A stretch of DNA of 64,000 nucleotides from Isurus oxyrinchus (taxonomy: Eukaryota). The notes under the pieces are model-generated. The model was given only the letters and a program-made list of their open reading frames with translations. It was not told where the DNA came from and ran no database searches. The translations under genes were made by a program, and so were the position numbers. The stretch covers positions 5,704,001 to 5,768,000 of the forward strand of contig JANJGN010000026.1 in assembly GCA_026770705.1 (NCBI GenBank). The letters run 5' to 3'. Of this stretch, positions 1,661-64,000 are shown piece after piece; positions within the stretch are counted from its first letter, which is position 1; the number at the start of each line of letters is the position of its first letter.

Positions 1661-2300
1661 TCCAAGGACACTGCCTCCGCTGCCACATCTCCACTGAAGT
1701 TATTTTTTATGGCTGAGCTCAGAGAGAGATTTCATGTGGTTAATTTCGCTGGTCTGACAGAAGAATCCTTCAATTGTAAAATGGGCAACATTACCAGCCC
1801 GCCTCACTCAACCCCTCCCCAACGCTGCATCCCTCCAGAGGTCGGATTTCAAACCATTCCACAACATGCATGAAGAGATTTTACAAGGCGGAAACCGCTG
1901 GTCTTTGTATCTTTCAAAGCTCCCCTTCCATCTGCAAGTTGTTCTGAGATTTTTAGACAAGTTCCCCCTTAATGGTGGAGACGGAAGCCTCTCCGTCTTT
2001 GGGCTGTAATCTGCCAGGATGAGATTTTCCTCCGCGCTCCCTTTCTGTAATCTCATGAAACTCGAGCCTGGTGGTGTGAGCTTCATACCTAGAGCGAAGA
2101 CGCGCAGGAGAGCGAGAATGGACCGAAAACCAGCAGCACCAAACAGCACTGAGGTACATTTATTTCCCAACTTCACCGTTTCAGTTAGTCACTGAAACCT
2201 AGCGGTGAAAGATGGGAACCGGCCTCAGTCTGTGTGCATCACCGAGGTGCAACTGTCGAGAAAACACCAGATTAACACGTATTGATGATAGAAATTCTTC

Positions 2301-3364
2301 TCACTGTTTAATGAATTTAACACTTACAGAAAAGGGATATTTCACCACATTCTTCAGCTCCTCTCTGAATTTAGTCTGGGTCACTGCATAAATAGCCGTG
2401 TTGGTGCAACAACCCAGGAGCTGAAACATAAATCCCAGTTGCTGTACAAATTTAGGTGTTTATAAATAGATAAAAGCTAACAGATACAACCTGTTACAAA
2501 TAGAATATATCAAAAAGATCGCCCACAGCAGGATAAAATTCCCAGATATAGCAAACAGTAAAATGATGGATTTCCTACGTTTCTCCATCTCTGGGTCACT
2601 GGGATTCTCCCCATTGCAGTGAGCCCGGAGTCTCCTGTGGGCTCTGCTCGACACTAAAATATATCTGACAGTTAAAGAATTCAACACCAAAATCAAAACA
2701 AATAGTGCAAATGGGGTTAAAGTATAATGAAAGAATTCGATTGCTGCCCACATTGATGAAAGATCAGCATCCTGCACTAATATGCAAAGCCAAGGATTGT
2801 TGGAAATCCAATATATGCCTTCATACATAAAATACCAGAAAGTGTTCTTCACAAAGAACAGCAGATTCAATGTTCCGAGAACCACAGCCGTTGCATGCTC
2901 AGTGCAATATTTTGTTTTCAACTTCTGGTAACAAATGGCCAGGAATCGATCAAATGTGAAAGAGACAGTGAACCAGAGAGAACAATCTGTGGCTGCAAAA
3001 AGCAGGACAGCATGGATATTACAGAGTTGACGTTTCGAGTCCTCATGACCCTTCGACAGAATTAATTTTATGGTCATGAGGACTCGAAACGTCAACAGTT
3101 TTCTTCTCTGCCAATGCTACCAGACCTGCTGAGTTTTTCCAGGTAATTCTGTTTTTGTTTTGGATTTCCAGCATCCGCAGTTTTTTGTTTTTATATATGG
3201 GTATTACAGACTTTAATCCTCCACATGAACTGAAACTGATCCCAATAACAAATAGAAATCTGCCTAAATATGAGGTCAATGATAACGACCAGTAGATCCA
3301 CGGTTGCCATGGACACCAGGTAACGGGTAACACATTTTGAGAGACTGCACCTTCCCCGAGACAA
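2301..3364 (-). pseudogene. GPR139/GPR142-like GPCR pseudogene, exon 2
   Basis: Reads LSRGRCSLSKCVTRYLVSMATVDLL...KVCNTH, then an insertion (3026-3196), then CNIHAVL...FTFDRFLAIC...EMEKRRKSIILLFAISG...; in-frame TAA at 2462-2460; then TM7 ...LLGCCTNTAIYAVTQTKFREELKNVVKYPF...KQ and TGA at 2303-2301. The acceptor and first codons of the exon were not found. Confidence 0.9.
3026..3196 (+). mobile_element. Short Penelope-derived insertion with 5' inversion, inside GPCR exon
   Basis: 14-bp target duplication ATGGATATTACAGA (3012-3025) / ATGGGTATTACAGA (3197-3210); perfect 25-bp inverted repeat at 3026-3050 / 3072-3096. Confidence 0.85.
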
Positions 3365-7199: not shown

Positions 7200-10100
7200 A
7201 AGGCCAGAATGAGAGCGCTGAAGCATTCATTTCAAAAAGTGATATCAGCAAAAGATGAGATTTGACTGGTGAGTAGTGGGTAAGTCTTTTTCTCCCGTAT
7301 TTTCCCCCAGGTTAAAATTGATTAAGGTAACGAAAGGTATGTGTTCTAGTTTTCATTTAAAATACATAAATAATTTAACATTTTTTGCTTAAAGTAAGGG
7401 TTTTTTTCAACTAGAGGAATGGGAGTGCAGCTCAGTCCCGTGAAATGTATCGCCTGCAAAATGTAGGAAGTCCTCGATGCTCCTTGTGCTCTAATCGACC
7501 ACGTGTGTAGGAGGTGCCATCAGCTGCAGCTACTTGAACTCCGAGTTTTGGAGTTTCTGCGACAGCTGGAGGCACTGAGGTACATCCGTGAGGCTGAGAG
7601 TTTCGTAGATCGTATGTTTTTAGATGTGGTCACACCACAGCTTATGCAAGTACTTGCACAGAGGGAATGGGTGACCATCAGTCAGAAGAAAGGTGTCAGG
7701 CAGGTAGTCAGGAAATCTCCAGGGTGCATCTCGCTCGAGAGCCGTTTCTCTGTGTTGGAAAACAGTAAGAGTTATGGTTCCTTTGGGGAGTGCAGCCACG
7801 CTCATGGCGCTGTAAGTGGCTCAGCTGCACGAGGCGGGGATTAAATAGAGGGGAAGAGCAATAGTGGTAGGAGACTCGATAATAAAGAGAACATATTGGC
7901 GTTTCTGCGGCCGGAGACGTCTCTCCAGGAAGCTATGTTGCCTCCCTGGTGTCAAAGTCTATGATGTCACTGAATGGCTGCAGGGCATTCTAAAGGGGGG
8001 ACAGCAAACAGGCAGAGACCGAGGCACATATTGGCACCAATGACATAGGTAGAAAGAGGGATGAGGTCATGTAAGCAGAATTTAGGGAGCTAGGAAACAG
8101 ATTGAACAACAGGACCTCAAAGGTAGTAATCTCTGGATTACTTCTGGTGTCACACGCTGGTGACTATAGAAATTGGAGGCTAGTCCAGATGAATGTGTGG
8201 CTGGAGAGATGGTGCAGGAGGGAAGGCTTTAGATTGCTGGGACGTTGGGACCATTTCTGGGGGCGTTGGGATCTGTACAAGGTGGACAGGTTGCACCTGA
8301 ACCGGAATGGCCTCAACTTCCTTGCGGACATCTTGGCTAGAGCAGTTTGGGAGGGTTTCAATTAACTTGGCAGGGGGATAGGATCCTGAGAGGTGGTTCA
8401 GCAGGGGGAGATGCACACCAAAAATTAGAAGAGAGAGCAAGTGAGTCTGAAAGGCATAGAATTTATAGGCCAGTTAAGACATAAGGGAGTTTAGCAAAGT
8501 TGGATGGATTTTATTTTAGTGCAAGGAGCTTGACAAATAAGGCAGGTGAGTTGAGGGCAAAAATTAACACATGGAAATGCGATGTCATTGCTGTCACAGA
8601 GACATGGTTGAGAGAGGGGCAAGATTGGCTGTTCAATATTCCAGAATATAGGGTCTTCAGGCGAGAGAGGGAAGGGAGCAAAAGTTGATGGGGCATCGCA
8701 AAATTGATCAAGGAATCAATTACAGCAGTAAAGAAGGATTGCATGTTGGAAGGTTCCTCAAATGAAGCCATATGGGTAGAACTGAAAAACAAAAAAGGAT
8801 TAATCACACTGCTGGGTGTGTCCTTTAGGCAGCCAATCAGTTAGAGAGAAATAGAGGAGCAGATATGTTGGCAAATTTCAGAGAAGAGTAAAAAAATAAT
8901 GGGGTATTTCAACCTCACCACCATTACTGTGGGCTATTGATACTGTGATAGGGTGAGAGGGAGCAGAATTCTTAAAGCACATCCAGAAGCGCTTCTTAAG
9001 CCAGTACATAGAAAGCTCAACAAGAGAGGGGCCCGTCCTGGACTTAGTTTTAGGGAATGAAGCTGGACAATTGGTAGAGGTGTCAGTGGGGAAGCGTTTT
9101 GCAGAAAGTGATCATGACTCCGTTAGATTCAAGGGTGTTATGGAATAGGAAAAGGATAGGTCATAAAGCAGAGTTCTAATTTGGGGGAAGGTCGATTGTA
9201 ATAAGATTAGGTATGATTTGGCTAGAGTGGACTGGGAGCAGCTATTTTTAGGTAGATCTGCGTCAGAGCAGTGGGTCTCATTCAAGAAGGAAATAGGGAG
9301 AGAACAGGGCTAACGTATTCCAGTAAAGACAAATATTGGGACCAACAAATCCAGGGAATCCTGGATGTTGAGGGATTAGATAAAGTGCAAAAGGGTGTCT
9401 TATGGCAGGGACCGAGGGCTGAAAACAAAAGAAGCCCTAGAGGAGTATAGAATGTGTAGGAGAGAGTTAAAAAGGAAATTAAGAGAGCCAAAAGGGGCAT
9501 AAGTAAACATTGGCTGGTAAAATAAAGGCAAATCCAAAGTTATTTTACAAGTGCATTAAGAGTAAGAGGATAATTAGGGAAAGATTAGGGCCCATTACGG
9601 GCCATAGTGGTAATTTGTGTGTAGAGCTGGAAGACGTAGGTAGGGTTCCAACTGAATACTTTGTGTCGGTGTTCACAAGTGAGAGGGATGACAGAGAGAC
9701 TGTGATATAATTAAATAAATTAACATAGAAAGGGAGGAGGTTCTAAGTGGTCTGGCAGGTTTAAAAGTATATAATTCTCCAGGCCCGGATGACATGTATC
9801 CCAGGCTATTGAATGAGGCAAAGGAGGAGGTAGCAGCGGCGCTGCTAATAATTTCCAATACCTCTCTGGTCACAGGAGAGGTGCCACAGGACTAGAGGAC
9901 AGCCAATGGCATACCTTTATTCAAAAAGGGAGGAAGGTATAAACCAAGGAATTACAGGCCTGTAAACCAAACCTCAGTGATAAGGAAACTATTGGAAGCA
10001 ATTCTGAGGGGCAGAGTCAATCTACACCTGAAGAGGCAGGGATTAATCTAGGACAGTCAGCATGGTTTTGTTTAGGGGAGGTCATGTCTGACCAAATTGA

Positions 10101-11320: not shown

Positions 11321-14300
11321 TAATGTAGCACAGAGACGTTGAAGGTGGCAGTAGTTGCAAAATCTTTGTAGAGGAAAGAGAAGTTAGAGACTGAGTGTTT
11401 GCTTAGAGGGACTGAAGCGTCAGGGTTGTTTTTTTTACGGAGAGAGGGGTGATGGCTACAGATTGGAACAGCAGATGAACAGTGACTAAGCGGATGGGGT
11501 TATTTACTATACCAGCAACTGAGGAACATGGTGAGGAAGTTCGGTGTTCTGCCGTTTTCTGGGAGTAAGGTGAACCGAGCAGGTGAGGGGTCTCATGGAC
11601 AAGTTGAGAGGATGTGAGGTACAAAAGTCGAGGAAGGTGTGAATTCTGGACAGTCAGGGACGAATTTAGGGGACTTTTGCCGGATACATTAAGAGAAGGG
11701 GCAGTGGGACCGGCAGCTAAACAGTCTCAATCTTTGTGGCAAAGTTCTTCAAGAGTCTCTCACACTTACTTTTAGAGTGAAGGTGGAGGGAGATGTTTAT
11801 ACATTATTTGTAGCATTGGAACAAGTTGGGATTGATTTTGGATTTCAGAATGACTGGAAGAGTGAGCAGTTTTGCTTCGGGTGAATCCGAAGCGAAAGTG
11901 CTTTCTGTGCTCAGGCCGGATCCCCCGTTGACTGTTTAAACCAATCATTTTCCATTGACACTTTGACCGGAATTTTGGAAACCCGCCCCCAACACCTATC
12001 CCACCCCCCGCGGCGGTGCTGCCGAGCCATTGACATCTCCATTCACATCTGCGGGACCTGGAGATCCTGTTGACGTGAAGGGCTGGAAAATTGCGCTACA
12101 AGTGCGGGTTACTGGACTATACAGGTCCTGAGGTGATGGCCGTACCAGGGAGACTGCCAAGGATAAGAAAGAAACATAACGCAAAGGATACCAAAGATGG
12201 GGCTGAGAAGGTGACTGAACGGATTGGGAGCTGCAGGAATGCAGCAGTGTGGGGGCCGGTTAACATCCAATTGGTTTGGAATTTGGAACTAGGTGTAGCT
12301 CCTCCTCCCACTCCCCAGTTACCCGGATGGTGAAACAGACAATCTACCAGACAGAGAGAGATTACGTCAACTCATCCTATCAACAGGAAAAACTCAACAA
12401 GCTATCAGTAAATTGATTGAGAAACTTGAAGTAGTGTCATAAAGTCTCAGCTACTCTCCCACACCCTGATCACCAATACTCAGCTTGGGATATACCTGAA
12501 ACATCCCGATGGAAAAACACAATTTTCACATGCAGTTCACATGCAGAAATCATTTCAATGGGAGTCAAAGTACACTCAAGAGCTGATTCTCCTGCTGCCC
12601 ACTCAGCACCCAACCCACAAACCCATCAAACACCTGGAACTATCAAATCTGAAATATGATGCAAAGCTCAGTAATCATCTGGGTGGGTATCACAACGTCA
12701 CACAATGAGCAGAATCACGTTCTAGTACAGAATAGATGGTTTATCAGTGACCGTCCATTATTGGACTCAATATTCACCACCTCTCCTCTGTGGATGCAGG
12801 AAGCATGACTCCAGGAACAGCTTTCCCAAAACCTGGGCTTACTTTGACAATATTTCCCCAACTTCACAGCGAAAAGGCGAACAGCTGCAATACCGTTAAC
12901 TCCAGCAACCACAACCATTCTCCACAAATGGTGAGATCCACTATTTCTAACGCACAATCCGGATTTGCACAGATAAGCCCGCCCTTCATCAATGTTTAGT
13001 CAGAGTTCTGGAATTCCCTCACAACAGGTGGGAGCACCTTTAGCAGAAGGACTACAGCAGCTCAGCAAGAAGACCCAGCACTAGCTTCTCAGCTCTCCTC
13101 TGGATAGACAATAAATAGAACATCGTACCAATCACCATTTCCCAAGGACACATTCAGAAAACCATTTCAGTGGGAGAGGAACTATGGTCTACCATTATGA
13201 ATAAATTAAGGCAGAGGCAGGGAGGGAATTGATGTCTGCCGGCAGAAACAGGAATGGAGTAAAAGGCTGGGGTGAAAATGGAATCTGTAAGTAGGAAGGG
13301 GAACTGATTTATCTAGGGAAGGAATAGAGTCAGGTGTCAGGGAGGTGAATAGAGTTTGTGAAAAGAGTATGGAGGTTGTGGCCAAAGCCAAAAATGATGA
13401 ATTCAGTTACATTTCTGAAAATATCATTAATAGTTTGAATCATTTGTTGACACTTGAACCTTTACAACCAATGCACTGCAAACTGCAGACGAATTGTTTC
13501 AAGGCGAACTTTGTACGTACAATGCAAAATCCGATTTAACAAACAGACTCATACTTTCAATAGAGTGATGATCTGAGCAGTAAATAATAGACAGTGGGGC
13601 AACAGTAACTGTGTAAACACTTCTGGAGCAGCCTTTCTCCTGCTTCTGGGAACTGAACAGATGAAAAACTGACAGAGCGATTATGAGACTGGAATTATCT
13701 AAAGATTCCACTGTTCACAGTCCTACATTTATAATCAGCTGGAATTGTTTATACTAAGAGGAGCTGTTGGATAGTTAATGTGGATCATAGAAATCTATGG
13801 AACTGTCACTGAACAAAGGAAAAATGTAATTAATCCGTCCAAATACAACAGATTTTTTTTCTTGAACAGTGTAAAAGTTTCAATCCTCGCCCGACAATCT
13901 GGATTTGGTGACTCTAAGATAAAGCGGGAAATAGCGGAAGGGTAAGGTGTTGCCTGGAGCTGAGTCATTATTGGAGGTGTCACTAATTTCAGCGTTATTC
14001 GTGATCTGTATTCTACTCTGGTTTCTACGGAACAGCGTTGTTTACAATCTCCATCAGAACGTAACACCGATACCCACAAAACATATTTCTGATCAGATAT
14101 TAGGCTTCAGTTCAGAAATCAGATTGCAGCTGTTCAATAACTATAATCTATCAATAATATTTATTGTTTAAAATAGTCAACCAGGCAAATTATTTTTTAA
14201 AGAAATCAGTTGAAGCAACTCATGAAATATAGAAACGTTCAACCGTGAACAGGGAATCAGCAACCGATGAAATGTTAAATTACAGAAACACAGAGTATTA

Positions 14301-36270: not shown

Positions 36271-36602
36271 CGATCACCTGTGATACGTTATTGATGCCAT
36301 TCCCTTTCTCTGTGTGGTGTTCCCACGTTTGGTGCAAAGTGTTTGTGACGGGCTTACATTTATTAGGTATTTGCCCTTTCCTACTTTAAAACGAGACATA
36401 ATTTATTATTTTATTCACAGGAGACGTTCCTGTCGCTTAAAGGACAATTTCCAAACAGCATCATGTGAAAAGCACAATATTTCACACAGAAACCAGTGAA
36501 ATGAATGTTATTTTGGGTTTCGAACAGTAGCGTTGCTGTTCCCAAGAACTCACATGATAAAGACACTCTCGCTTATTCAATTTCTCTCACTCTCTCTTAC
36601 AG

Positions 36603-37522
36603 CTAACTTGGCAGTGATTATGATCCTGTCTCGAGGAAGATGCGGTCTCTCCAGGTGCATCACTTACTATTTGGTTTCTATGGCCGTGTCGGACCTCATG
36701 GTGATTATCAATTCTGTGATATTAAACCGGATCGCTGGTATTTATTTCCCATTTAGTTTCCTGGCCATCACACCGGTCTGCAGTCTCCGTTCTGTCTTCA
36801 ACTATGCAGCCTTAGGCTGTTCAGCACTATTAACGGTCGCTTTCACCTTTGATAGATTTGTGGCCATTTGTTGTCAAAAGTTGAAAATAAAATATTGCAC
36901 CGAGAAGGTGGCAGCGCTGGTTATCGGAACAGTCTGCGCAATCAGCTGTTTTATAACTTCCTTCTTGTATTTGATTTATGAACCTTTGCACACAATTCAC
37001 AATGTACCCTGGTTCTGCAGCATAAAGCACATATTTTATACGTCACCTTCTTGGGTGACATATGACTGGATTCTCCACATTTTAACTCCTTGTCTCCCGT
37101 CCATTCTGATTTTACTGCTCAATGCTTTGACTGCCAGGCACATTCTCGAGGCCAGTCGGGCCCGCAGGAGACTCCAGGCCCAGAGCAGTAGAGAGAATCA
37201 GACTGACCCAGAGATGGAGAAGAGGAGAAAGTCCATTGTTTTACTCTTTGCCATTTCCGGCAGCTTCATCGTATTATATTCGTTAACTTTTATCACCTTC
37301 CTCTACGTCAGAATTGCGAGAGTTACTTATTTCTCTGGTTCCAACTTCAATGAATCAAATGTCATTCTGGAGGAAAGTGGATTTATCTTGAAACTTTTCA
37401 GTTCCTGCATCAATCCTTTTATTTATGCCGGAACCCAGAGTAAATTCAGAGAGGAGTTAATAAATGGGGTGAAATATCCACTCAGTTTCATTTTTAAATT
37501 ATTTAAATTACGAGAAAGGTAA
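36603..37522 (+). CDS. GPR139/GPR142-like GPCR, exon 2 (spliced protein 329 aa)
   Basis: Pyrimidine tract + AG at 36601-36602, phase matches exon 1 (G+CT=Ala). Seven-TM pattern with NL (TM1), MAVSDL (TM2), FTFDRF (TM3), TPCLP (TM5), SSCINPFIY (TM7) and helix 8 KFREEL. The frame is open to TAA. Confidence 0.92.
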
Positions 37523-41960: not shown

Positions 41961-43925
41961 AGAGGCGAAGAGCAATGGGGAACTAGGGAATTGTGAAGCC
42001 TACAAAGATGAACACAACTAAAAAAGAAATAAGGAGGGAGAAGATTAAATAAGAGGGTAAACTAGCCAGTAATACAAAAGAAGATCGCAAGAATATTTTT
42101 TACATTTATAAAGGGGCAGAGAGAGGCAAAAATGGACATTGGGCCGCTGGAAAATGACACTGGAGAAGTTGTAGTGGGGAACAAAGAAATGGCGGAGGAA
42201 CTGAATAAGTACTTTGTGTCAGTCTTCACAGTTGAAAACACGAGTAACGTCCACAAAGTTCAAGAGAGTCGGGGGCAGAGGTGAGTATGGTGGCCATTAC
42301 CAAGGAGAAGGTGCTAGGAAAACTGAAAGCTCCGAAGCTGGATAAATCACCTCGACCACATGGATTACAACCCAGACTTCTGAAGGAGATAGCTGAAGAG
42401 ATAGTGGAGGCGGTAGTGGTGATCTTTCTTGAATCACTGTAGTCAGGGAGGGTCCCAGAGGACTAGAAAATCGCTAATGTAACCCCTCTGTTTAAGAAGG
42501 GAGTGAGGCAAAAGATGGGAAATTACAGGCCGATTAGCCTGACCTCAGTCGTTGGTAAGAATTTAGTGTCCATTATTGAGGATGAGATTTCAGAATACTT
42601 GGAATTGCGTGTTAAAATAGGGCAAAGACAGCATGGTTTCATCAAGGGGAGGTCATGCCTGACAAATAAATTAGACTTCTTTCATGAGGTAACGAGTAGG
42701 TTAGTTAAAGGAGAGCCAATGGATGTTATCTACTTGGACTTCAAGAAGTCTTTTGACAAGGTGCCGCACAGGGGGCTGATCAGTAAGATAAGAGCCTATG
42801 GTGTTGGAGGCAAGATATTAGCATGGATAAAAGATTGGCTGTCTGGCAGGAGACAGAGAGTGGGGAGAAGGGTGTCCTTCTCAGGATTGCGGCTGGTGAC
42901 TAGTAGAGTTCTGCAGGGGTCAGTTTTGGGACCACAACTTTTCACATTATATAGTAGTGATCTAGATGAAGGAACTGAGGGCATCCTGATTAAGTTTGCA
43001 GATGATACAAAGATAGGTTCGAGGGAGAGGTAATATTGAGGAGGCAGGGAGACTGCAGAAGGATTTGGACAGGTTAAGAGAATGGCCAAAGAAGTAGCAG
43101 ATGGAATACAATGTGGGGAATTGTGAGGTCATGCACTTTGGTAGGAAGAATAGAGGCATAGACTATTTTCTAAATGGGGAGAGAATTCAGAAACCTGGAG
43201 TGCAAAGGGACTTGGGAGTCCTAGTCCAGGATTCACTTAACGTTAACTTGCAGGGTGAGTCGGTAGTTAGGAAGGCAAATGCAATGTTCGTATTTATTTT
43301 GAGAGGACTAGAATATAAATGCAGGGATGTGCTGCTGAGGCTACATAAGGCTCTGGTCAGATCATATTTAGAATATTGTGAGCATTTTTGGGCCCCGTAT
43401 CTCAGGAAGGATTTTCTGGCCCTGGAAAGGGTCCAGAGGATGTCCACAAGAACGGTCGCAGGAATGAAAGGCTTAACATATGAGGAACATTTGCAGAATC
43501 TGGGTCTATACTCGATGGAGTTTAGAAGGATGAGGGGGGAATCTGATTGAAACTTACAGAATTCTGAAAGTCCTGGAGATGGTGGACGTGGGGAAGATGT
43601 TTCCTTTACTAGGAGAGACTAGCACCCGAGGGCACAGCCTCAGAGTAAAGGGAAGACCTTTTAGAACAGAGATGATGATAAACTTCTTTAGCCAGAGAGT
43701 GGTGAATCTATGGAATTCATTGCCACAGAAGGGTTTAGAGGCCAGGTTATTGAGGGTATTTAAGATCAAGATAGATAGGTTCTTGATTGGTAAGGGGATC
43801 AAAGGTTACGGGAGAAGGCAGGAGAATGGGATTGAGAAACTTATCAGCCATGATTGAATGGTGGAGCAGGCTCGATGGGCCAAATGGCCTAATTTCTGCT
43901 CCTATGTCTTATGGTCTTATGGATT
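41960..43925 (+). mobile_element. Second 5'-truncated CR1 LINE (less decayed)
   Basis: [46 protein letters not shown]; tail TATGTCTTATGGTCTTATGG. Confidence 0.92.
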
Positions 43926-48942: not shown

Positions 48943-50600
48943 ATAAAAGGAAAATACTGCGGACGCTGGGAATCTGAAATTTAAAAGCAAAATCAGAAAA
49001 TACTGGAAAAAGCTCAGCAGGTTTGGCAGTTTTTTTTTTGAGATCGAAGCGGAGAACGTTTCGAGTTTCCCTGACTCTTCTTCAGAACTGAATAGCGATA
49101 GAAATGCCACGGATTTTAAACTGTTGAAGAGAGGGGATGGAGCGAAACAGATGGTCGAAACAGCTGGAGACTTCACAATGATGCCATGGACATAAGACAA
49201 TGGTAACGCTAAAGACTAAGGCAGGTGCTAATAGTGACATAAAGGTCAGATAGCAGAATGTGCTAATTGCAGAACAAGGGCCCGCGCTCTCTGAAAGCAA
49301 AAAAAAATAGGAACACGTTACAGACTGCCCCTGTTAAAGGGAAGGAGGTGGGGGTGGGAAAAATGTCAAAATGAAGGACAGAGTTCATGGTCTGAAGCAG
49401 TTGAACTCAGTGTTAATCCAGAAGTCTGTCAGGTGCCTATTCAGAAGACAAGGCTTCCAATTAGATACTTTACAAGCTTCCAGGCTTAACATTAAGTTCA
49501 TTAATTCAGACCATGATCTCTGGCCTACATGTTGATATTTTTCTCCAACCCCATCCTCCCACAGGGCAAGTCTGTAACTTGTTCTTATGCTTTGCTTTCA
49601 CAGGCGCTGACCTTTGCCGTCAGCAACTCTCTGACCTTTAAATCAGCATAAACACCCACCTTAGGCTGTATCACTATCATTACCATTCTGTCACAGGAAG
49701 ATAGGAACAGGAGAAGGTCATTCAGCCTGTCGAGCTTGCTTCACCATTCAATACGATCATTGCTGAATGAAAACTTCAATGGCTTTTACCCACGCTATCC
49801 CCATAACACATTATGTTATTGTTAATCAGGGATCGCCCAAACTCTAGCTTAAACATACTCAATGACTGAGGTTCCACAGCCTTCTGGGGGAAAGAATTCC
49901 AAAGATTCACAACCCTCTGAATAAATAAATTTCTCCTCATCTCTGTCCTAAGTGGGATTCGCCTTATTTTGAAATTGTGTCCACTGGTTCTAGACTGTCC
50001 AAGCAGTGGAAAAATCATACGTGCACCTACCCTACCCATTCCTTCAAGTATTTTGTAGATTTCATTGAGATCACGTCTCATTCTTCGAAACTCTAGAGAA
50101 TGCAGGCCCCATTTCCCCAATCTCTATTCATAAGACAGGCCCCACCCCCCCGTTCAAGGAGCAAGTCTGGTGAATCTTCGTTGCACCCCCCTCTATGGCA
50201 ATAATATCCTTCCTCAAGTAAGGGGACCAAAACTGCCCACAGTACTCTAGATGCGGTTTAACCAAGCTTCTATACAATTGAAGCAAGACTCTACTACCTC
50301 TGTTCTCAAATCCTCTGCTAATAAAGGCTGACATTCCATTAGCCTTCCTAATTTCCTGCCCCAGCTGCATGTGTTGTGTCCATGTCATTTGGTCACGTCT
50401 CGCCTGAGCTCCCACCTATCCCGGACCATCTATTTTGCTCCACCCACCCAATCCCTCTCTTCAGCAGTAGTAAAAAGCACATTTCTACCTCTCTTCACCT
50501 CTGAAGAAGAGTCATACGGACCCCAAGGGTTAACACTATTTCTCTCTTCATTGATGGTAACAGATTGACTAAGTTTTTCCACAATTTACAGCTTTCATTT
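48943..50600. mobile_element. Head-to-head Penelope-like 3' ends (arms ~48943-49455 - and ~49455-49692 + 50375-50600 +)
   Basis: Both arms start at the GIY-YIG C-terminal motif (F.LGTLQ.SGLN.EFN.FR-like) and end in the hammerhead-bearing terminus; the right arm is split by a CR1. Confidence 0.7.
49700..50370 (-). mobile_element. CR1 3' fragment nested in the Penelope arm
   Basis: LYRSLVKPHLEYCGQFWSPYLRKDI; NLFIQRVVNLWNSFP. Confidence 0.9.
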
Positions 50601-55325: not shown

Positions 55326-55331
55326 TTTATT
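55326..55331 (-). other. Candidate polyA signal of the Ig light-chain gene
   Basis: AATAAA on the minus strand, ~360 bp after the C-exon stop. Confidence 0.4.
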
Positions 55332-55688
55332 CTGCTAAAGCTGAGAAATGTTGATGCTGCGTTATTAATCGCTTCCTAACGAAACATAATTGAAGCAACT
55401 GAGCCCCATTCGTTTGAAAATATCAGTTACAATTCACAGGCATAGGAGGAAACAATTATCGGCATCTTAAATATGGAACAGGTTACTCTCAGTTTGGTTA
55501 TTGTTAGAGAAAATTAAAAAGCAATTCTGAAATTTATAATTCCTGCTGTTTACAATCTCACAAATACTTAGCCAAGAAATTAAAACTTCACGCCGTTCAG
55601 ATACATTAACTAAATCTACCGAGATAACCGCCACGTTTCGTTTTGAAATTAAACTCAGGAGGTATTGCTTTGAACTAATAACCGGTCT

Positions 55689-56022
55689 TTAGAGATTGCA
55701 GGTGTCCAACCTGATGGATTTCTGAACCAGGGTGTCCTGAGACTTGTATTTGAAGAGACACGAGTAATGTTCCTTCGAGTTCCAGGAGCAGACAGGGACC
55801 CTCAGGTAGCTGCTCATGCTGTAACTGTTGTCAGCCTCATGATTCGGTAGACTTGTGCACACTCCACTCTGCGTCTCACTGCCCCACACTTCCCACAGAA
55901 TGTCCACGAAAGCTGCGTAGAAGCCCCGAATCAGACAGCTCAGCGTCACTGTTTCAGCTGAAGTTACTACCTGGCGCGAAGGAGGAAACAATTCCAATGA
56001 TGGCACATCTGTAGTTGACGAT
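55689..56022 (-). pseudogene. Ig light-chain constant (C1-set) exon
   Basis: PSLELFPPS...VTLSCLIRGFY...LW...ETQSGV.T...DNSYSMSSYLRVP..WN...YSC...KSIRLDTCNL*, with a near-terminal Cys typical of light chains. Acceptors at 56022 (out of frame) or 56008 (in frame). Confidence 0.88.
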
Positions 56023-56876
56023 CTGTAACAGACGGTACATAGATGACATGGACTGTCACTGTAAGAGTCGTTATTGTAGCCTAACGTTATGGTTATCACA
56101 GAACCATAGGAAAATACCACACAGAATGAGGCCTCCATCAGTGCGGTTTTCCATATAATTATTCATCTTGTCTCAGTCATGTACTCTTTTTCCTTAGCCC
56201 CGTAATAGTGTCCACTAAAATATACATCCCATTCCCGTTTCAAAGTTTTATTGAATCTGCTTTCAGCGTCGTCCCTTCCCTGCCCTCCAGATCACAACAA
56301 ACCGTTGCATAAAAAGAAAAATAAATCCCGCATGGCCGCTCTGGTTCTTCTTCCAATTGCTTTATATCTGTATTCTGTGATTAAGGACTTTCCTGTCAGT
56401 GGTAACAGTTTTTCCTAAGTTTCACTGTTGAAGTCCCTAATGGTTTGAATATCTGCATTAAATTACCCCATAACTGTCGCTATTCTAAGGAAACAACAAC
56501 CCCAGGTTTTCCAGTCTGTCCACAGAACTCCCGTCATGCTTCTCTGGTGGGCTTAGTTATGGGCTCATGATCACACCATTACAATTTCGGGAATTGAATT
56601 CAATTAAGCTGGAGGCAAACAAGCTCCAGAGTGTTGTTAATAGCCAAGTGGCTCCCAGGGAATGGACCAACCCCATTCCTACCCGCCTTGTCTATATGTG
56701 ACTCAGTCCCACACTGGTAATTACATTTTGGTTCACTGAGGGCGAATAATAATAGGCCACCTTCGCTCTGTAGCCCACGATGTTCAAAAATAACATTGTA
56801 AATGCTACGACGCCATTATTTACTATCACCGCGTAACATTTTCACCCCTATCTTTTAGTTTTAACAATAGTTTGAT

Positions 56877-56984
56877 GGAAAATTCCTTGAATTGCTTGGT
56901 GTGAACAATTTGCTAAATAAAAGGGGAACTTTCCATTTTGTGTTATATATTGGGGAACTCCCAAACAGATATTTCAAACATCTG
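56877..56984. promoter_or_regulatory. Candidate J-C intronic enhancer (kB-like cluster + E-box)
   Basis: GGAAAATTCC 56877-56886, GGGAACTTTCC 56924-56934, GGGGAACTCCC 56952-56962, CATCTG 56979-56984. Confidence 0.45.
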
Positions 56985-59668
56985 CCAGCAATACGAACAG
57001 AATCATCGCCGCTGTCACATTTATTTGTTCTACAAAACGTATTCCACCCAATGTGCTTCTGATTCGGCTCCACTACAACTGAGAGCGCAACTGCTCGGTG
57101 TGCTGTAGACCAGTGCACACTAAGCCTTGCGCATGTCTGTAAAAATGGATTCGTGTAATATCCTCAGCTGCTTGTTATCTTTTATTGAGGAGAAACGCCT
57201 TTATTTTTCGTAAACGTACTTACAGCCAATGGCCCAAAAGCGAATCATTAAAAGAAGCATTGCCTGTATTTATTTTTACAGAAATTGATTACATTGTATT
57301 GCTCTATCGCGAAAAATTGGTTAAATTCTAATCTGCAACCTCGACATTCAAACCGATAAATGCACCGCTTTATTGTTGGAAAGATCGAAGCCTTTGCACT
57401 AACAACTTTAAAAATCTCATGCGCTAACTTAAAAAAAGCTAACCAGAAGTGAGCTTTCCAGCGCAAGATCCAACTGATTGACCCACACTTCAGAATCAAA
57501 ATGTCTTGCAATAATTTTGGCTATAAATTCGCCTAAGGCGGCGGAACAATACAGGCGGCATTGATTCTACCGGCCGTTCTACACAGCGCCTGATATCCTT
57601 GTCCATGCAGTTAGTGGAGCTGAGTATCGGGAGCTGTTTGAATCATGGCCGACATTGTCTATTTTCTTACACTTATCAGTAGCATGAGGAACAATTGAAT
57701 GAAAAATAAAAGCTCTAAAATTATTACAAATGCTTTGAACTGTCGGGGAAGTAATTGCACGGGTCACTTTCTGAATTAAAATAGGAAATGCATCAAAGAA
57801 TATGTTCCCTGCGTTGCATTGAAAGACAAGTTGGGCATTCACTGGCTTCAATTGCCATGGATCGAAGGAGAAGGCATCTATATCCCATCTGCATCCCATC
57901 ACCCTGCACTGAAATGAGAGCAATTCTTCCTTGCCGGAACAAATAACAATCGGAGGCAATTTCAACCTTTTTTTTTCTTTTCGGAATTATTGTCATTTTC
58001 TGAAATTAATTCTATTGATGGTGATGTTCATACGTGATTCATTGAACATTCGTATTTGAACGTTTCTTTGCCTCGGAGCTCCGCTCTAAACTAATGGCTT
58101 ATGGTTCAAAATGTAATAATACATGGCAGCTCCAAATTAAATACCCTTTCTTCTCAATATTGTACTGTAGGAAATTTAAACCAACAATTTCCTGACTCAA
58201 ACGCTACCACTCAGAGTGCTACCACTAAATCATGGCTGTTACAACAGAAATGATACCAAGAGGGAGTGTAACGGCCCTCTGTGTAAACATTAACATCATA
58301 CTCGGTGTTCCAGTCGAATAATATCACAATTAAATTGTTTCATTCTTAACCTGTCCCACTGTATTAACCTGCAACTTAAAGTGCAATAACGTCTAGTTTT
58401 TTTTAAATAAATACTGATTGATGCGAAGGAGCTTTTCCAATGATCATGGCAGAGGTCTGCAGTTTCATTTAATATTTTACCACGAAGGTCAATTTGCTCG
58501 ATGCGTTTATACAGAAAAAATTGTGCCGAAAAACCAGTTCGGAACAGAAGTGAAAAATGAACTTTCAAATCCTATAAGTTATTGACAACTAATATTTCTT
58601 TTATTATGCTTCATGCTTAACATTTCTGCATATTCAGATATTAAATTGTACGGTTTGCCAATAATTGAAAGATCGGGTGATTTAATTTTTGGTAGCCGTA
58701 CTTGTTCAGATTTAAAGATTCTATTGTTCCGATAAATTTCGGTTTATTTTACAGTGTACACTTTCAGTTATTCGAGCCAATGCATTAGATATGGAAGTGA
58801 CTGAAAATACATTCATTGAAAGAATGGTGATTTGTTGGTTATACACCGTTCAGCCACAAAATAATAACTGCTCACTCACTCCGCTGGCACCATGCCCCAG
58901 AGCAATAATGCATATGGCTGTGTGACCATAAATACATGTAGAATTGAAGAGTGGTGGTAATAAGATAGATTGATCAAACGTTAAGGAAATGAATATCCTG
59001 TAAGAGCAAGTGCCACTCAATGTTAAAATACCGTCCAGTTTTAACCAATTTCACATGGCAATACCAACTAGCTCCCAGAAATAACAAATATCGCCCAATA
59101 ACAATGAATAAAGATTAGCAACAACAAACATCGCCTACTATTGGGAAACTTATCTTCACCACAATGCACGATAGGGATAGGAATTCGCCTTGGCAGTGGC
59201 ACAAATCAGGCCGTATCGGTGAGGCCGTTGGTTCAGTGCAGCCCCTGACATTTAGTTCCATTGGCTAAAATGCAACTGACTATTGGCCGCTGGGAAAAAG
59301 ACGCGGCCTATCTGATACCGTCCATCTCGTCTCAAAGACGATTTTTAACTCGTGGAATCCAAAGAATTTCGGAATCACTGCTTCGTATCCCGCGAAGCTG
59401 AGATTACCCCCACTTTCTTGCATTCCTGACAATAATTTTTATATGGGCAACATTAACGCGTGACCTCGTCTCAGCTGAACTATCACCGAGTCCACCTATT
59501 TTAAACTAATAAAATACCAACTGCCGAGTATCTTAAGCACTGAAGGAAATGTCATTGCCGTGGTGTCGGGCTTGCGAAGTTTTGACACAATGACTGTTGC
59601 AACATTGTGTAATATTTTGCAATCCAAAGTGTTCCCTGAACACAAACACGGCCTCAATATTGACTTAC

Positions 59669-60027
59669 CTAGTACGTGTAGCTCTGTACCTTCACCAAAA
59701 TTATATCCATAATCATAAAACGCACAGTAATAGACGGTCGAGTACTTCAGCTCCACTTGGTTGACCGGAGAGAGAAACGGTTCTTTGGGTCGACTCTAGA
59801 ATGGGCGAAGCGGTCAGTGAACCCTGAGCATCGGTGCAGTGCAACTCCATCATTGGTGCTTTTGTGGGTCAGGATGCACACCGGTGGCTTCCACGGCGTC
59901 TGCCAGAACCAACGGAGCCACCTATCCCCGATACCTCTGTTCTTTACCGAGCAGTTTAAGGTGACGGACCATGCTGGGACGGCAAAGGCAGTTTCGGTTT
60001 GGAGCAGTTCGGGAAGTGCCCAGACAC
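59669..60027 (-). pseudogene. Germline-joined VJ exon of Ig light chain (type I/sigma-cart-like), 1-nt frameshift
   Basis: TTACAG|..VWALPELLQTET...VTLNCSVKN...WLRWFWQTP...SGFTDRF...FSLR [frameshift ~59764] NQVELKYSTVYYCAFYDYGYNFGEGTELHVL-G|GTAAGT. No RSS between V and J. Confidence 0.9.
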
Positions 60028-60151
60028 CTGTAAGGATCAGAGTAAAAGTGATGAGTTCAGGCCAAAGGGAAAGGATAAAGGTAGCATGGTACGTTTTGGG
60101 TCAATACACTTTTAAATCTTTACAGCAAAATCAAATCAACATTTTACTCAC

Positions 60152-60197
60152 TGGAGAAACACGTTAGCAAGAGAAGCATCATATAAACTGTGTCCAT
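60152..60197 (-). CDS. Ig leader exon
   Basis: ATG at 60197; MDTVYMMLLLLTCFS + A|GTGAGT; 46 nt, phase 1, followed by a 124-bp intron. Confidence 0.88.
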
Positions 60198-60284
60198 GGT
60201 TACACTGAGGTACGCGCAGTGATTGACAAACTGGGACTGAGATTCTGACTGTCTGTGCAAAGGTAGAAATTGGGTGCGACACAG

Positions 60285-60346
60285 TTATAATCCAAACCAA
60301 GGAATCTTATTGGCTGTCAGCAACACGCCTTCAAAAATGCAAATTA
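60285..60346 (-). promoter_or_regulatory. Ig light-chain promoter: decamer/octamer, CCAAT, TATA
   Basis: Minus strand TAATTTGCAT (60346-60337) matches the TNATTTGCAT decamer; CCAAT 60313-60309; TTATAA 60290-60285. Confidence 0.8.
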
Positions 60347-60989
60347 ATTTGATGGGAAGAGAACTGGACAACAGACCGAAACCCATGGACACTTGGAAAT
60401 TAAAATTTATGCCGATTGTGAAAATAGCAATTGCAGGCGCAATGTCTGGAAAAAATCCAACACTCACGTATTTGGTAATATCAGCAGTCTTAACTGCCCC
60501 CTTTGTAAATCCCTCATAACATGTACATCTACATGATCTATCTCCCCTTCACCATGCTGAGGCTATGCTCCCTTGCTGGACAGTCAACGAGTATGCTAGC
60601 TTTTCTTTAAAGTTGTGTTTTACTATCCAGCCTGGAAGTTGCCATTGCTAATGTGAATTGAGGACCTTCCGTATTCTAGTGAAACGTCGATTGCCGCTGC
60701 AACACTGCTAAAAGCAGCAGAAAAGGGTTTGGTGCAGCGACATGTTAATGTCGCTGGTGTTTGACATTACAACTTATTTTTGGCCTGATGTAACTCACCA
60801 GCACTTAGAAAGTCAAAGAGATCATCATTCAGCATTTATACTTGACCACAACACAACAACACAACTGTGGATAAATAGAAGTTCTCTGCTGCAGATGTCT
60901 TCCAGTCTACTGAATGGAATCATCAAATGATACGATGAAGAAGGAAGACTCTCTTTCTACCTTTGCGTGCTCTATAAGATTTGTTGAAT

Positions 60990-62619: not shown

Positions 62620-63960
62620 CTTGGAATGTAAGGAATAAGTTACAGTGAATGATTATTGTTCATTTCATCTATGATACCTTACAACACTGGGATGTTTTAC
62701 ATTCGATGTGAAGTATATCAGAAAAGGTGTTAATTTACTATTCATTTCATGCGAGGGATAATAAAGCGACAAAAAATTATTAGATTTTATAGTAATGGAT
62801 TATTGTTCATTTAATGTGAGGGGTGTTACAGATACATAACTAAATCATGTAATGTGAGGTGTACTCCAACAATGGAACGTTGTTAAATAAAGTGAGCTAT
62901 AATATGGAAATTGGTTATTATTCACTTAATATGATGCACCTGAAACGAATGGATTAATGCTCAAGTACTTTGAGGTATACAACAACAGGGTCAATGTTCA
63001 TTTAATTTGGAGGATATTTCAATCGTAGAATGTTGCTCGTTTAATGCAAGGGATATCAAATATATACATTACTGTACATTTCATATAACATACATTACAA
63101 AAATTCATTTTATTCAGTTATTATAAGGGATACTTGAGGAATAGATCAGTGTGCATTTAATATGTTGCATATTGAAGAAATGAAGTACTGTTCGTTACAT
63201 TTCAGGGATATTACAGTGATTGCTCCTTTGGAGTGAGTTTATTAAAGGAATAGATTACTACTCAGTTCAGGTGAGGGGTATTACAGCACTAGTTTATTGT
63301 TCGTTTCATGCATTCCAACAATGAATTAGGATTACTTTAAAGCCTTGTACATAATGGCAAGGAATTAGTGTTCGTTTAATTTGGGGAATATTACAGGTGT
63401 GGATTATTGATTAATTAATGTAAACTGCCTCGGAGCAATGGATTATTCATCATTTAAAATTAGTTTTATTGCAGCAATACATTATTGTTTTTAATGTGAG
63501 GGATATTACAACACTGGATTATTTTTCCTTTACCGTCTGATGTGTGGTAACAATTGATCAGTGTTCATGTCATGCCAAGAGTATGGCAGAAATGGATTAT
63601 TGAACATTTGTTGTGAGTTATATTAAATTTAAAGATTATTATTCAATGAATTTGTGTGACTCTGCAGTAATGACATGCATATTCATTTAATATGAGGAGT
63701 ATTGCAGCAGTGGAACATTGTTCATCTAAAGTGAGACATATCAGAACAATAGATTATTGTTCATTTCTTGTGAGTTACAGAGTTACAATGAATTACAGTT
63801 CATTTAATGTGATTAACATTACTGTAATGAATAATTGTTTATTTAATTTGTTGGCTGAATAAAATTAGAAACAAGGCAGCGCAGTTATGTTTTTAGCCTG
63901 AATTAATTCGCTGCCTCCGTGCTCCATCTGAAACTCAGAAATTATTGTTCATTTTTATTT
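62620..63960. repeat. AT-rich ~39-bp degenerate tandem array
   Basis: Consensus near GGATATTACAGCAATGGATTATTGTTCATTTAATGTGAG; may continue beyond the window. Confidence 0.85.
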
Positions 63961-64000
63961 AATTGAAGATTATTTGGAATTCAAGAAATTTAAACAGACA

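Follow-up and report, generated by a model that had tools for sequence, protein, structure and literature searches.

A frameshifted, germline-joined immunoglobulin light-chain pseudogene in Isurus oxyrinchus, probably from an old branch of the sigma/sigma-2 group

Anatomy and lesions of the gene

The 64,000-nucleotide (nt) stretch of Isurus oxyrinchus DNA analysed here (NCBI GenBank assembly GCA_026770705.1, contig JANJGN010000026.1, positions 5,704,001 to 5,768,000 of the forward strand; hereafter the window) carries on its minus strand an immunoglobulin (Ig) light-chain gene in which the variable (V) and joining (J) segments are fused in a single exon. Overall, we believe that it is probably an unprocessed pseudogene, broken by frameshifts, of a shark light chain that was joined in the germline, likely one from an old and separate branch of the sigma/sigma-2 group. 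An earlier description made from the letters alone, the original prediction, had proposed a leader, a fused V-J exon, an intron of 3.6 kb and one constant (C) exon with a terminal Cys, and this layout is confirmed (Table 1): a split leader, a V-set exon and a single C1-set exon with phase-1 junctions, the layout of a light chain, with the third complementarity-determining region (CDR3) and the FGEG motif in the V-J exon as predicted. The C exon ends in Cys-Asn-Leu-stop (stop at 55691-55689), and this C-terminal Cys, of the type that bonds to the heavy chain, is present in the window copy and in both of its relatives, P0004 and P0005, described below.

The V-J exon was also said to lack a recombination signal sequence (RSS) or intervening DNA, which agrees with our scan: allowing at most three mismatches in total over heptamer plus nonamer, the 64 kb gave one match, at 14289, and the gene itself none, while the exact pattern gave no match in the window. 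Searching with all the Ig proteins collected (tblastn) gave no further Ig exons in the window, which extends only 3.7 kb upstream of the gene. With the V piece alone as query, 0 of 84 candidates matched, and Pfam gave no V recognition for the window V. The decamer upstream of the leader (60346-60337), already pointed out in the original prediction, is a predicted promoter element which we take to be of the light-chain type; it is the single match in the window against 1.8 expected by chance window-wide, so that what argues for it is its strand and its position. An AT-rich, decayed tandem array (23 copies of a unit of about 39 nt) lies 2.3 kb upstream of it, at 62640-63970.

The working gene implied by the original prediction is not what the exons contain. 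The reading frame, intact in P0004, is broken in the window copy by a stop at codon 109. The frame shifts near 59768, inside a short TC repeat, with framework 1 to mid framework 3 in one frame and the YYC-CDR3-J part in another. Nonsense-mediated decay follows a 50-55 nt rule, and because the stop lies 78 nt before the exon end, the message is a predicted target for decay. The C exon has gained 2 nt near 56008, which leaves the outer acceptor (56024-56023), matching the D-W-K-L-Q start of the orthologue, out of frame; the frame is kept from an inner AG at 56010-56009. Conserved V columns have been lost at 7 of 24 positions (the break counting as one) as compared with 1 of 24 in P0004, and the window C domain has lost the Pro of its GFYP motif and has five Cys rather than three. 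The gene is thus an unprocessed pseudogene. A processed pseudogene is rejected, as it had been in the original prediction, since both introns are kept.

Table 1. Features of the light-chain gene, in window coordinates
Feature	Position	Strand	Remarks
Light-chain-type decamer/octamer promoter element (predicted)	60337..60346	-	140 nt upstream of ATG
Leader exon, 46 nt	60152..60197	-	Phase-1 GT donor; resembles leader of orthologue P0004
Leader intron, 124 nt	60028..60151	-	GT-AG
Fused V-J exon, 359 nt, 1 nt short	59669..60027	-	CDR1 8, CDR2 10, CDR3 8 residues; without RSS
1-nt frameshift, framework 3	59765..59771	-	tblastn of P0004 switches frame here
Premature TGA, codon 109	59747..59749	-	78 nt before exon end, ahead of second V cysteine
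J-C intron, 3,646 nt	56023..59668	-	GT-AG
C1-set constant exon	55689..56022	-	Terminal Cys + TAA; Pfam C1-set E 3e-15
Candidate poly(A) signal	55326..55331	-	Sole AATAAA/ATTAAA in 1.2 kb past stop

Inheritance of the junction and the frameshift

DNA contigs were compared from four sequencing runs (X1, X2, X7 and X16) among the 20 that carry the stretch, out of 24 listed. X1 and X2 derive from a single sample of organism A, possibly the source of the window, X7 and X16 from organism B and two studies; the records of these runs name no tissue. Contigs of all four runs bridge the fused V-J exon without a gap. X1 and X2 show 0 and 1 differences from the window across the break and the junction, and X7 and X16 show 15 and 14 substitutions and 0 gaps across the V-J exon. 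With 148 differences over 4,801 nt in X7, the two species are about 3% apart, and at the V break none of the four short-read contig sets, representing three samples and two species, has an indel relative to the window. The fused junction and the V frameshift therefore predate the split of the two species and are inherited. Recurrence of this junction in three samples from two species bears out the germline-joined state claimed originally, and a somatic rearrangement, which could not have turned up in all of them as the main contig, is rejected. That the 2-nt gain in the C exon is younger is suggested by one contig (X16 record 8), in which the interval 55600-56023 as a whole lacks 2 nt.

Of 14 V-exon substitutions between the species, 9 change a residue, where 77% of sites would do so (binomial p=0.34), and the V-J exon is not better kept than the rest, with 3.9% divergence versus 3.1% for the whole gene (p=0.35). 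The window copy thus appears to be drifting neutrally, on a test that is weak.

In X1 and X2 there is, in addition, a version of greater depth that is about 91% alike across window positions 55600-60400; its C has lost 11 nt at 55892, and its V frameworks 1 and 2 contain residues that are more like those of the orthologue. It has no cover at 59640-59820, a gap from which nothing is concluded, and none was seen in the organism B runs examined (X7, X16). These versions of organism A are likely paralogues that are also broken; depth gives no copy number, however, and a mixed sample is possible.

Relatives, placement and neighbourhood

A search with the C domain gave two matches among 6 candidates, and a full-length search gave the same two among 125. 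The first, P0004, is the intact orthologue that the original prediction proposed to seek in other sharks: a 245-residue annotated model from the bamboo shark Chiloscyllium punctatum, identical under two accessions (GCC38681.1, XP_072406873.1). The second, P0005, is a damaged model from Mustelus asterias whose front end is scrambled. The window copy is 61% identical to P0004 in V and 72% in C, and its C domain is 74% identical to that of P0005; all three members of the lineage have a CDR3 of 8 residues. P0004 would also be V-J joined, judging from the complete J of the genomic models, where models of split loci of the horn shark (P0052) come without J. AlphaFold predicts a V plus a C1 domain for P0004 from a 25-row alignment (predicted local distance difference test, pLDDT, 89), a fold that matches the light chains of antigen-binding fragments; the single-sequence model (pLDDT 42) is unusable, and ESM Atlas returned generic V+C1 clusters only. 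HMMER, run against 1.84 billion representatives, gave 4,332 matches, of which the best 150 include no further close relative; the two-domain chains that come next reach 41% identity, and relatives above 50% would be concealed within one cluster of such representatives. No split, RSS-bearing sister of the lineage was found in searches made at the protein level only.

Trees were built from hand-picked rows: 51 for V (the window and 50 of 233 extracted domains), 43 for C (the window and 42 of 513) and 25 for both jointly, a set without shark kappa, PRARP or Xenopus VJC1 in which P0157 (WKK30312.1) is the only row named sigma-2 by its source, the other isotype labels being our assignments. In each of the three trees (V, C and joint) the lineage is a clade of its own, supported at 100/100, with a stem 0.5-0.8 changes per column long; within it, the window C groups with Mustelus (99/83) on a branch of 0.083, a grouping that would make a carcharhiniform source likely. 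It lies outside the canonical shark sigma-2 sequences, which form a starred clade in all three trees (97/92, 100/98, 100/100). The starred lambda/kappa-like clade (97/96) likewise does not include it, and it falls within a loose sigma-2 assemblage that is starred in none of the three trees (V 90/77, C 87/85, joint 86/84). The approximately unbiased (AU) test rejects nesting with the sigma-2 chain P0042 of the whale shark, an orectolobiform (p=7e-6), and grouping with the lambda-like P0055 (p=4e-7), and it allows grouping with P0034 of Heptranchias (p=0.09). A recent copy inside shark sigma-2 is accordingly rejected, and the distinct sublineage offered originally as one of several options holds up.

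IgL sigma-2 (sigma-cart, type I, NS5) is the closest known system: it shares the leader-V-J-C cluster, a CDR1 of 8 residues, the best V similarity and the terminal Cys, and joined members and pseudogenes are known there too. The resemblance to sigma-cart, together with strong divergence, was rightly perceived in the original prediction, since sigma-cart is the nearest named relative by V. However, P0004 is only 42% (V) and 41% (C) identical to the named sigma-2 P0157, where whale- and horn-shark sigma-2 share 68% and 73%, and the CDR2 of sigma-2 has 7 residues where that of the lineage has 10. IgL sigma resembles the lineage in its long CDR2 (9-10 in Table S5 of PMC5985310) and may group with it (AU p=0.31), but its CDR1 is shorter, identity is 30-39%, and the best trees keep the two apart, the sigma label of P0076 and P0128 being our own assignment. 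CDR1/CDR2 lengths are 8/10 in the window and in P0004, as against 8/7 for sigma-2 and 4-7/9-10 for sigma in the same table, and the lineage thus fits neither.

Coelacanth, gar and turtles have germline-joined genes of the sigma-2 type (PMC5985310), and there are similar models in lungfish, caecilian and Heptranchias (P0034), whose sigma-2 label we base on species and tree. Both sets share with the lineage a complete V-J, deep branches and the same assemblage; they differ in identity (30-42% per domain) and CDR2 length (7-8), and no sister relation with them is supported. Three further observations concern this assemblage. P0034 (Heptranchias perlo, XP_067833095.1), a divergent two-domain chain with a complete J, pairs with P0164 of the coelacanth (91/92), and the two are possibly a second deep pre-joined sigma-2-type lineage common to sharks and coelacanth. 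P0058 and P0098, from caecilian and lungfish, are sigma-2-type models with a complete J from groups missing from Table 2 of PMC5985310. Finally, P0010, P0018, P0022, P0033 (skate), P0038, P0065, P0095 and P0120 are multi-V membrane receptors in which the V-J domains are fixed and, in most, the tail carries tyrosine; their V domains, where placed in the tree, fall in the sigma-2 assemblage.

Germline-joined NS4 (kappa) genes of the nurse shark, including pseudogenes R6 and R19 (PMC2193156), offer a parallel: an inherited V-J join, introns kept, and joined copies that decay. In that report, however, the joins are recent and sit among near-identical split sisters, whereas the present lineage is common to shark orders and no split sister has been found. 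The original prediction also raised a link to non-rearranging VJ-C1 genes, which, with UrIg/UrIg2 and PRARP (PMC12227049, PMC10751288), do share the single V-J exon, split leader and C1 domain. This link is not borne out: the window gene has a single C exon, closed by its Cys and a stop, and a decamer promoter is predicted; no further C or membrane exon of the UrIg/PRARP type was found in the 64-kb window, and UrIg-like V and C domains lie far from the lineage in the V and C trees, PRARP and Xenopus VJC1 being outside the comparison set.

The GPCR (G-protein-coupled receptor) cluster said to adjoin the gene stands only in part. Two seven-transmembrane (7TM) genes do lie in the window, but they are about 18 kb and 52 kb away and the farther one is broken. 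The nearer, on the plus strand (36503-37519), is a rhodopsin-family frame of 339 open codons (Pfam 7tm_1 E 5e-24) with no match in PDB at E 1e-8; it lacks a clear start and may be exon 2 of a gene that has two. The farther (2295-3364, minus strand) is a paralogue, 46-50% identical and broken by a frame change and stops. Segments at 7419-8360, 42467-43547 and 49776-50415 are presumably retroelement remnants (long interspersed nuclear element-type ORF1, reverse transcriptase-like). A tblastn match of P0095 at 7419-7655 was rejected as an Ig exon; it aligns to the non-Ig front end of that protein, and the segment looks like what we take to be a retroelement ORF1.

Origin, alternatives and implications

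Several observations weigh against a single old join in a distinct, now decaying lineage. The CDR3-J sequences of the three members differ strongly, and separate joins of equal length are possible for that reason; P0004 also has Leu where the Phe of the J motif is expected. The position in the tree is loosely held, since the joint sigma-2 assemblage (86/84) dissolves once the window row is dropped, the AU test allows a sister relation to shark sigma-2 (p=0.48), to sigma (p=0.31) or to the bony-vertebrate sigma-2-type rows (p=0.31), and a younger duplicate that evolved fast could look deep. The annotated relatives are two only, which suggests frequent loss or poor annotation and counts against a widely conserved role, and expression of any member is predicted from sequence only. 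As for decay, the neutrality test has 14 changes to work with (ratio of non-synonymous to synonymous change, pN/pS, 0.54), the window C domain is not more eroded than that of P0004 (7 versus 6 of 28 conserved columns lost), and the splice sites and decamer of the window copy are intact.

The most serious competitor would derive the lineage from canonical shark sigma-2 (NS5/type I) by a later duplication, with fast evolution and an insertion of 3 residues in CDR2, which would make it in effect an odd joined cluster of a kind that, with its pseudogenes, is reported to be common in sigma-2 (PMC5192425). The top V matches are indeed sigma-2 (42-44%), CDR1 has the sigma-2 length, the sister relation to shark sigma-2 is allowed and the stem is long. 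At the same time, the trees place shark sigma-2 in a starred clade without the lineage three times over, nesting with P0042 is rejected, and the C domains of Chiloscyllium and the window are still 72% identical, with no hint of a runaway rate; we regard such a duplicate as rather improbable.

Less probable again, and in our view quite unlikely, is that the gene was never split, a relic of the VJ-C1 precursor into which the RAG transposon moved, in the manner of UrIg or PRARP. A split relative was not found, every member seen is joined, the lineage branches deep, and joined sigma-2 genes are also known from coelacanth, gar and turtle (PMC5985310). However, both V and C fall among light chains and far from UrIg-like domains, the single C exon has its terminal Cys and no membrane exon was seen in the window, and horn-shark sigma-2 is reported as split (PMC5192425), which means that the joined state is easily derived. 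In addition, our searches saw proteins only, and split loci often yield models without J (P0052, P0154-P0156).

Nor do we think it at all likely that the window copy partly works, with the leader spliced to the in-frame C acceptor to give a secreted chain of the constant domain only, for which the separately expressed sigma C of the sterlet is a precedent (PMC5985310). The leader donor and the inner C acceptor are both phase 1, C is open for 105 codons, and the C branch is short (0.083); but the divergence of C between the species, about 3% (X16 record 8: 13 of 424 nt), equals that of the whole gene, the window C lacks the GFYP Pro and has 5 Cys rather than 3, and the inner acceptor is apparently a by-product of the 2-nt gain. 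That the frameshifts are assembly errors in an intact gene is hardly credible: single-base indels are common in long reads and the V break sits in a TC repeat, but that break is free of indels relative to the window in all four short-read contig sets, an observation that applies to the V exon.

The general pathway to a decayed, pre-joined light chain can be outlined as follows. A single V-J join would have been made by RAG in a germ cell, before the orectolobiform and carcharhiniform sharks separated. That split is of the order of 150-200 million years old. The intact gene, as predicted from its sequence, would then be switched on in B cells from the decamer promoter without rearrangement, and by analogy with sigma-2 and IgM1gj it may supply an invariant light chain, disulfide-linked through its terminal Cys to the heavy chain. 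Both halves of this pathway have precedents, in that joining of Ig genes in germ cells is reported in PMC2193156, PMC4279169 and PMC5192425, and a joined sigma-2 chain pairs with IgM1gj in young nurse sharks (PMC4279169, PMC5192425). In the lineage of the window copy, by contrast with the intact gene, only a 108-residue stub would be encoded, from a message predicted to be degraded, and loss of the gene would have been followed by neutral drift.

A bolder reading is that the lineage is a sixth, uncatalogued isotype, always pre-joined, with CDR lengths of 8/10/8, basal to the radiation of sigma and sigma-2, still coding for an invariant, innate-like chain in bamboo sharks, with loss under way in carcharhiniforms. 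We consider this doubtful. PMC12227049 and PMC4279169 recognise four isotypes of shark light chain, and the CDR pattern matches none of the five in Table S5 of PMC5985310. We found no description of the lineage in the literature searched, which left out most subscription papers; Table S1 of PMC12227049 names a great white 'IgL sigmaprime' gene, LOC121270612, that may represent this lineage, which could thus be catalogued already.

The interest of the locus itself is limited, since the window copy is dead and there is nothing unusual in a dead joined cluster. What the lineage may offer is broader. A lineage that is pre-joined and stands apart from shark sigma-2 by as much as isotypes differ from one another would add a branch to the isotype scheme, and, if our reading is true, its junction would be a datable, old germline join common to two shark orders. 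The intact gene of the bamboo shark, a laboratory shark, makes neonatal expression and the heavy-chain partner directly testable.

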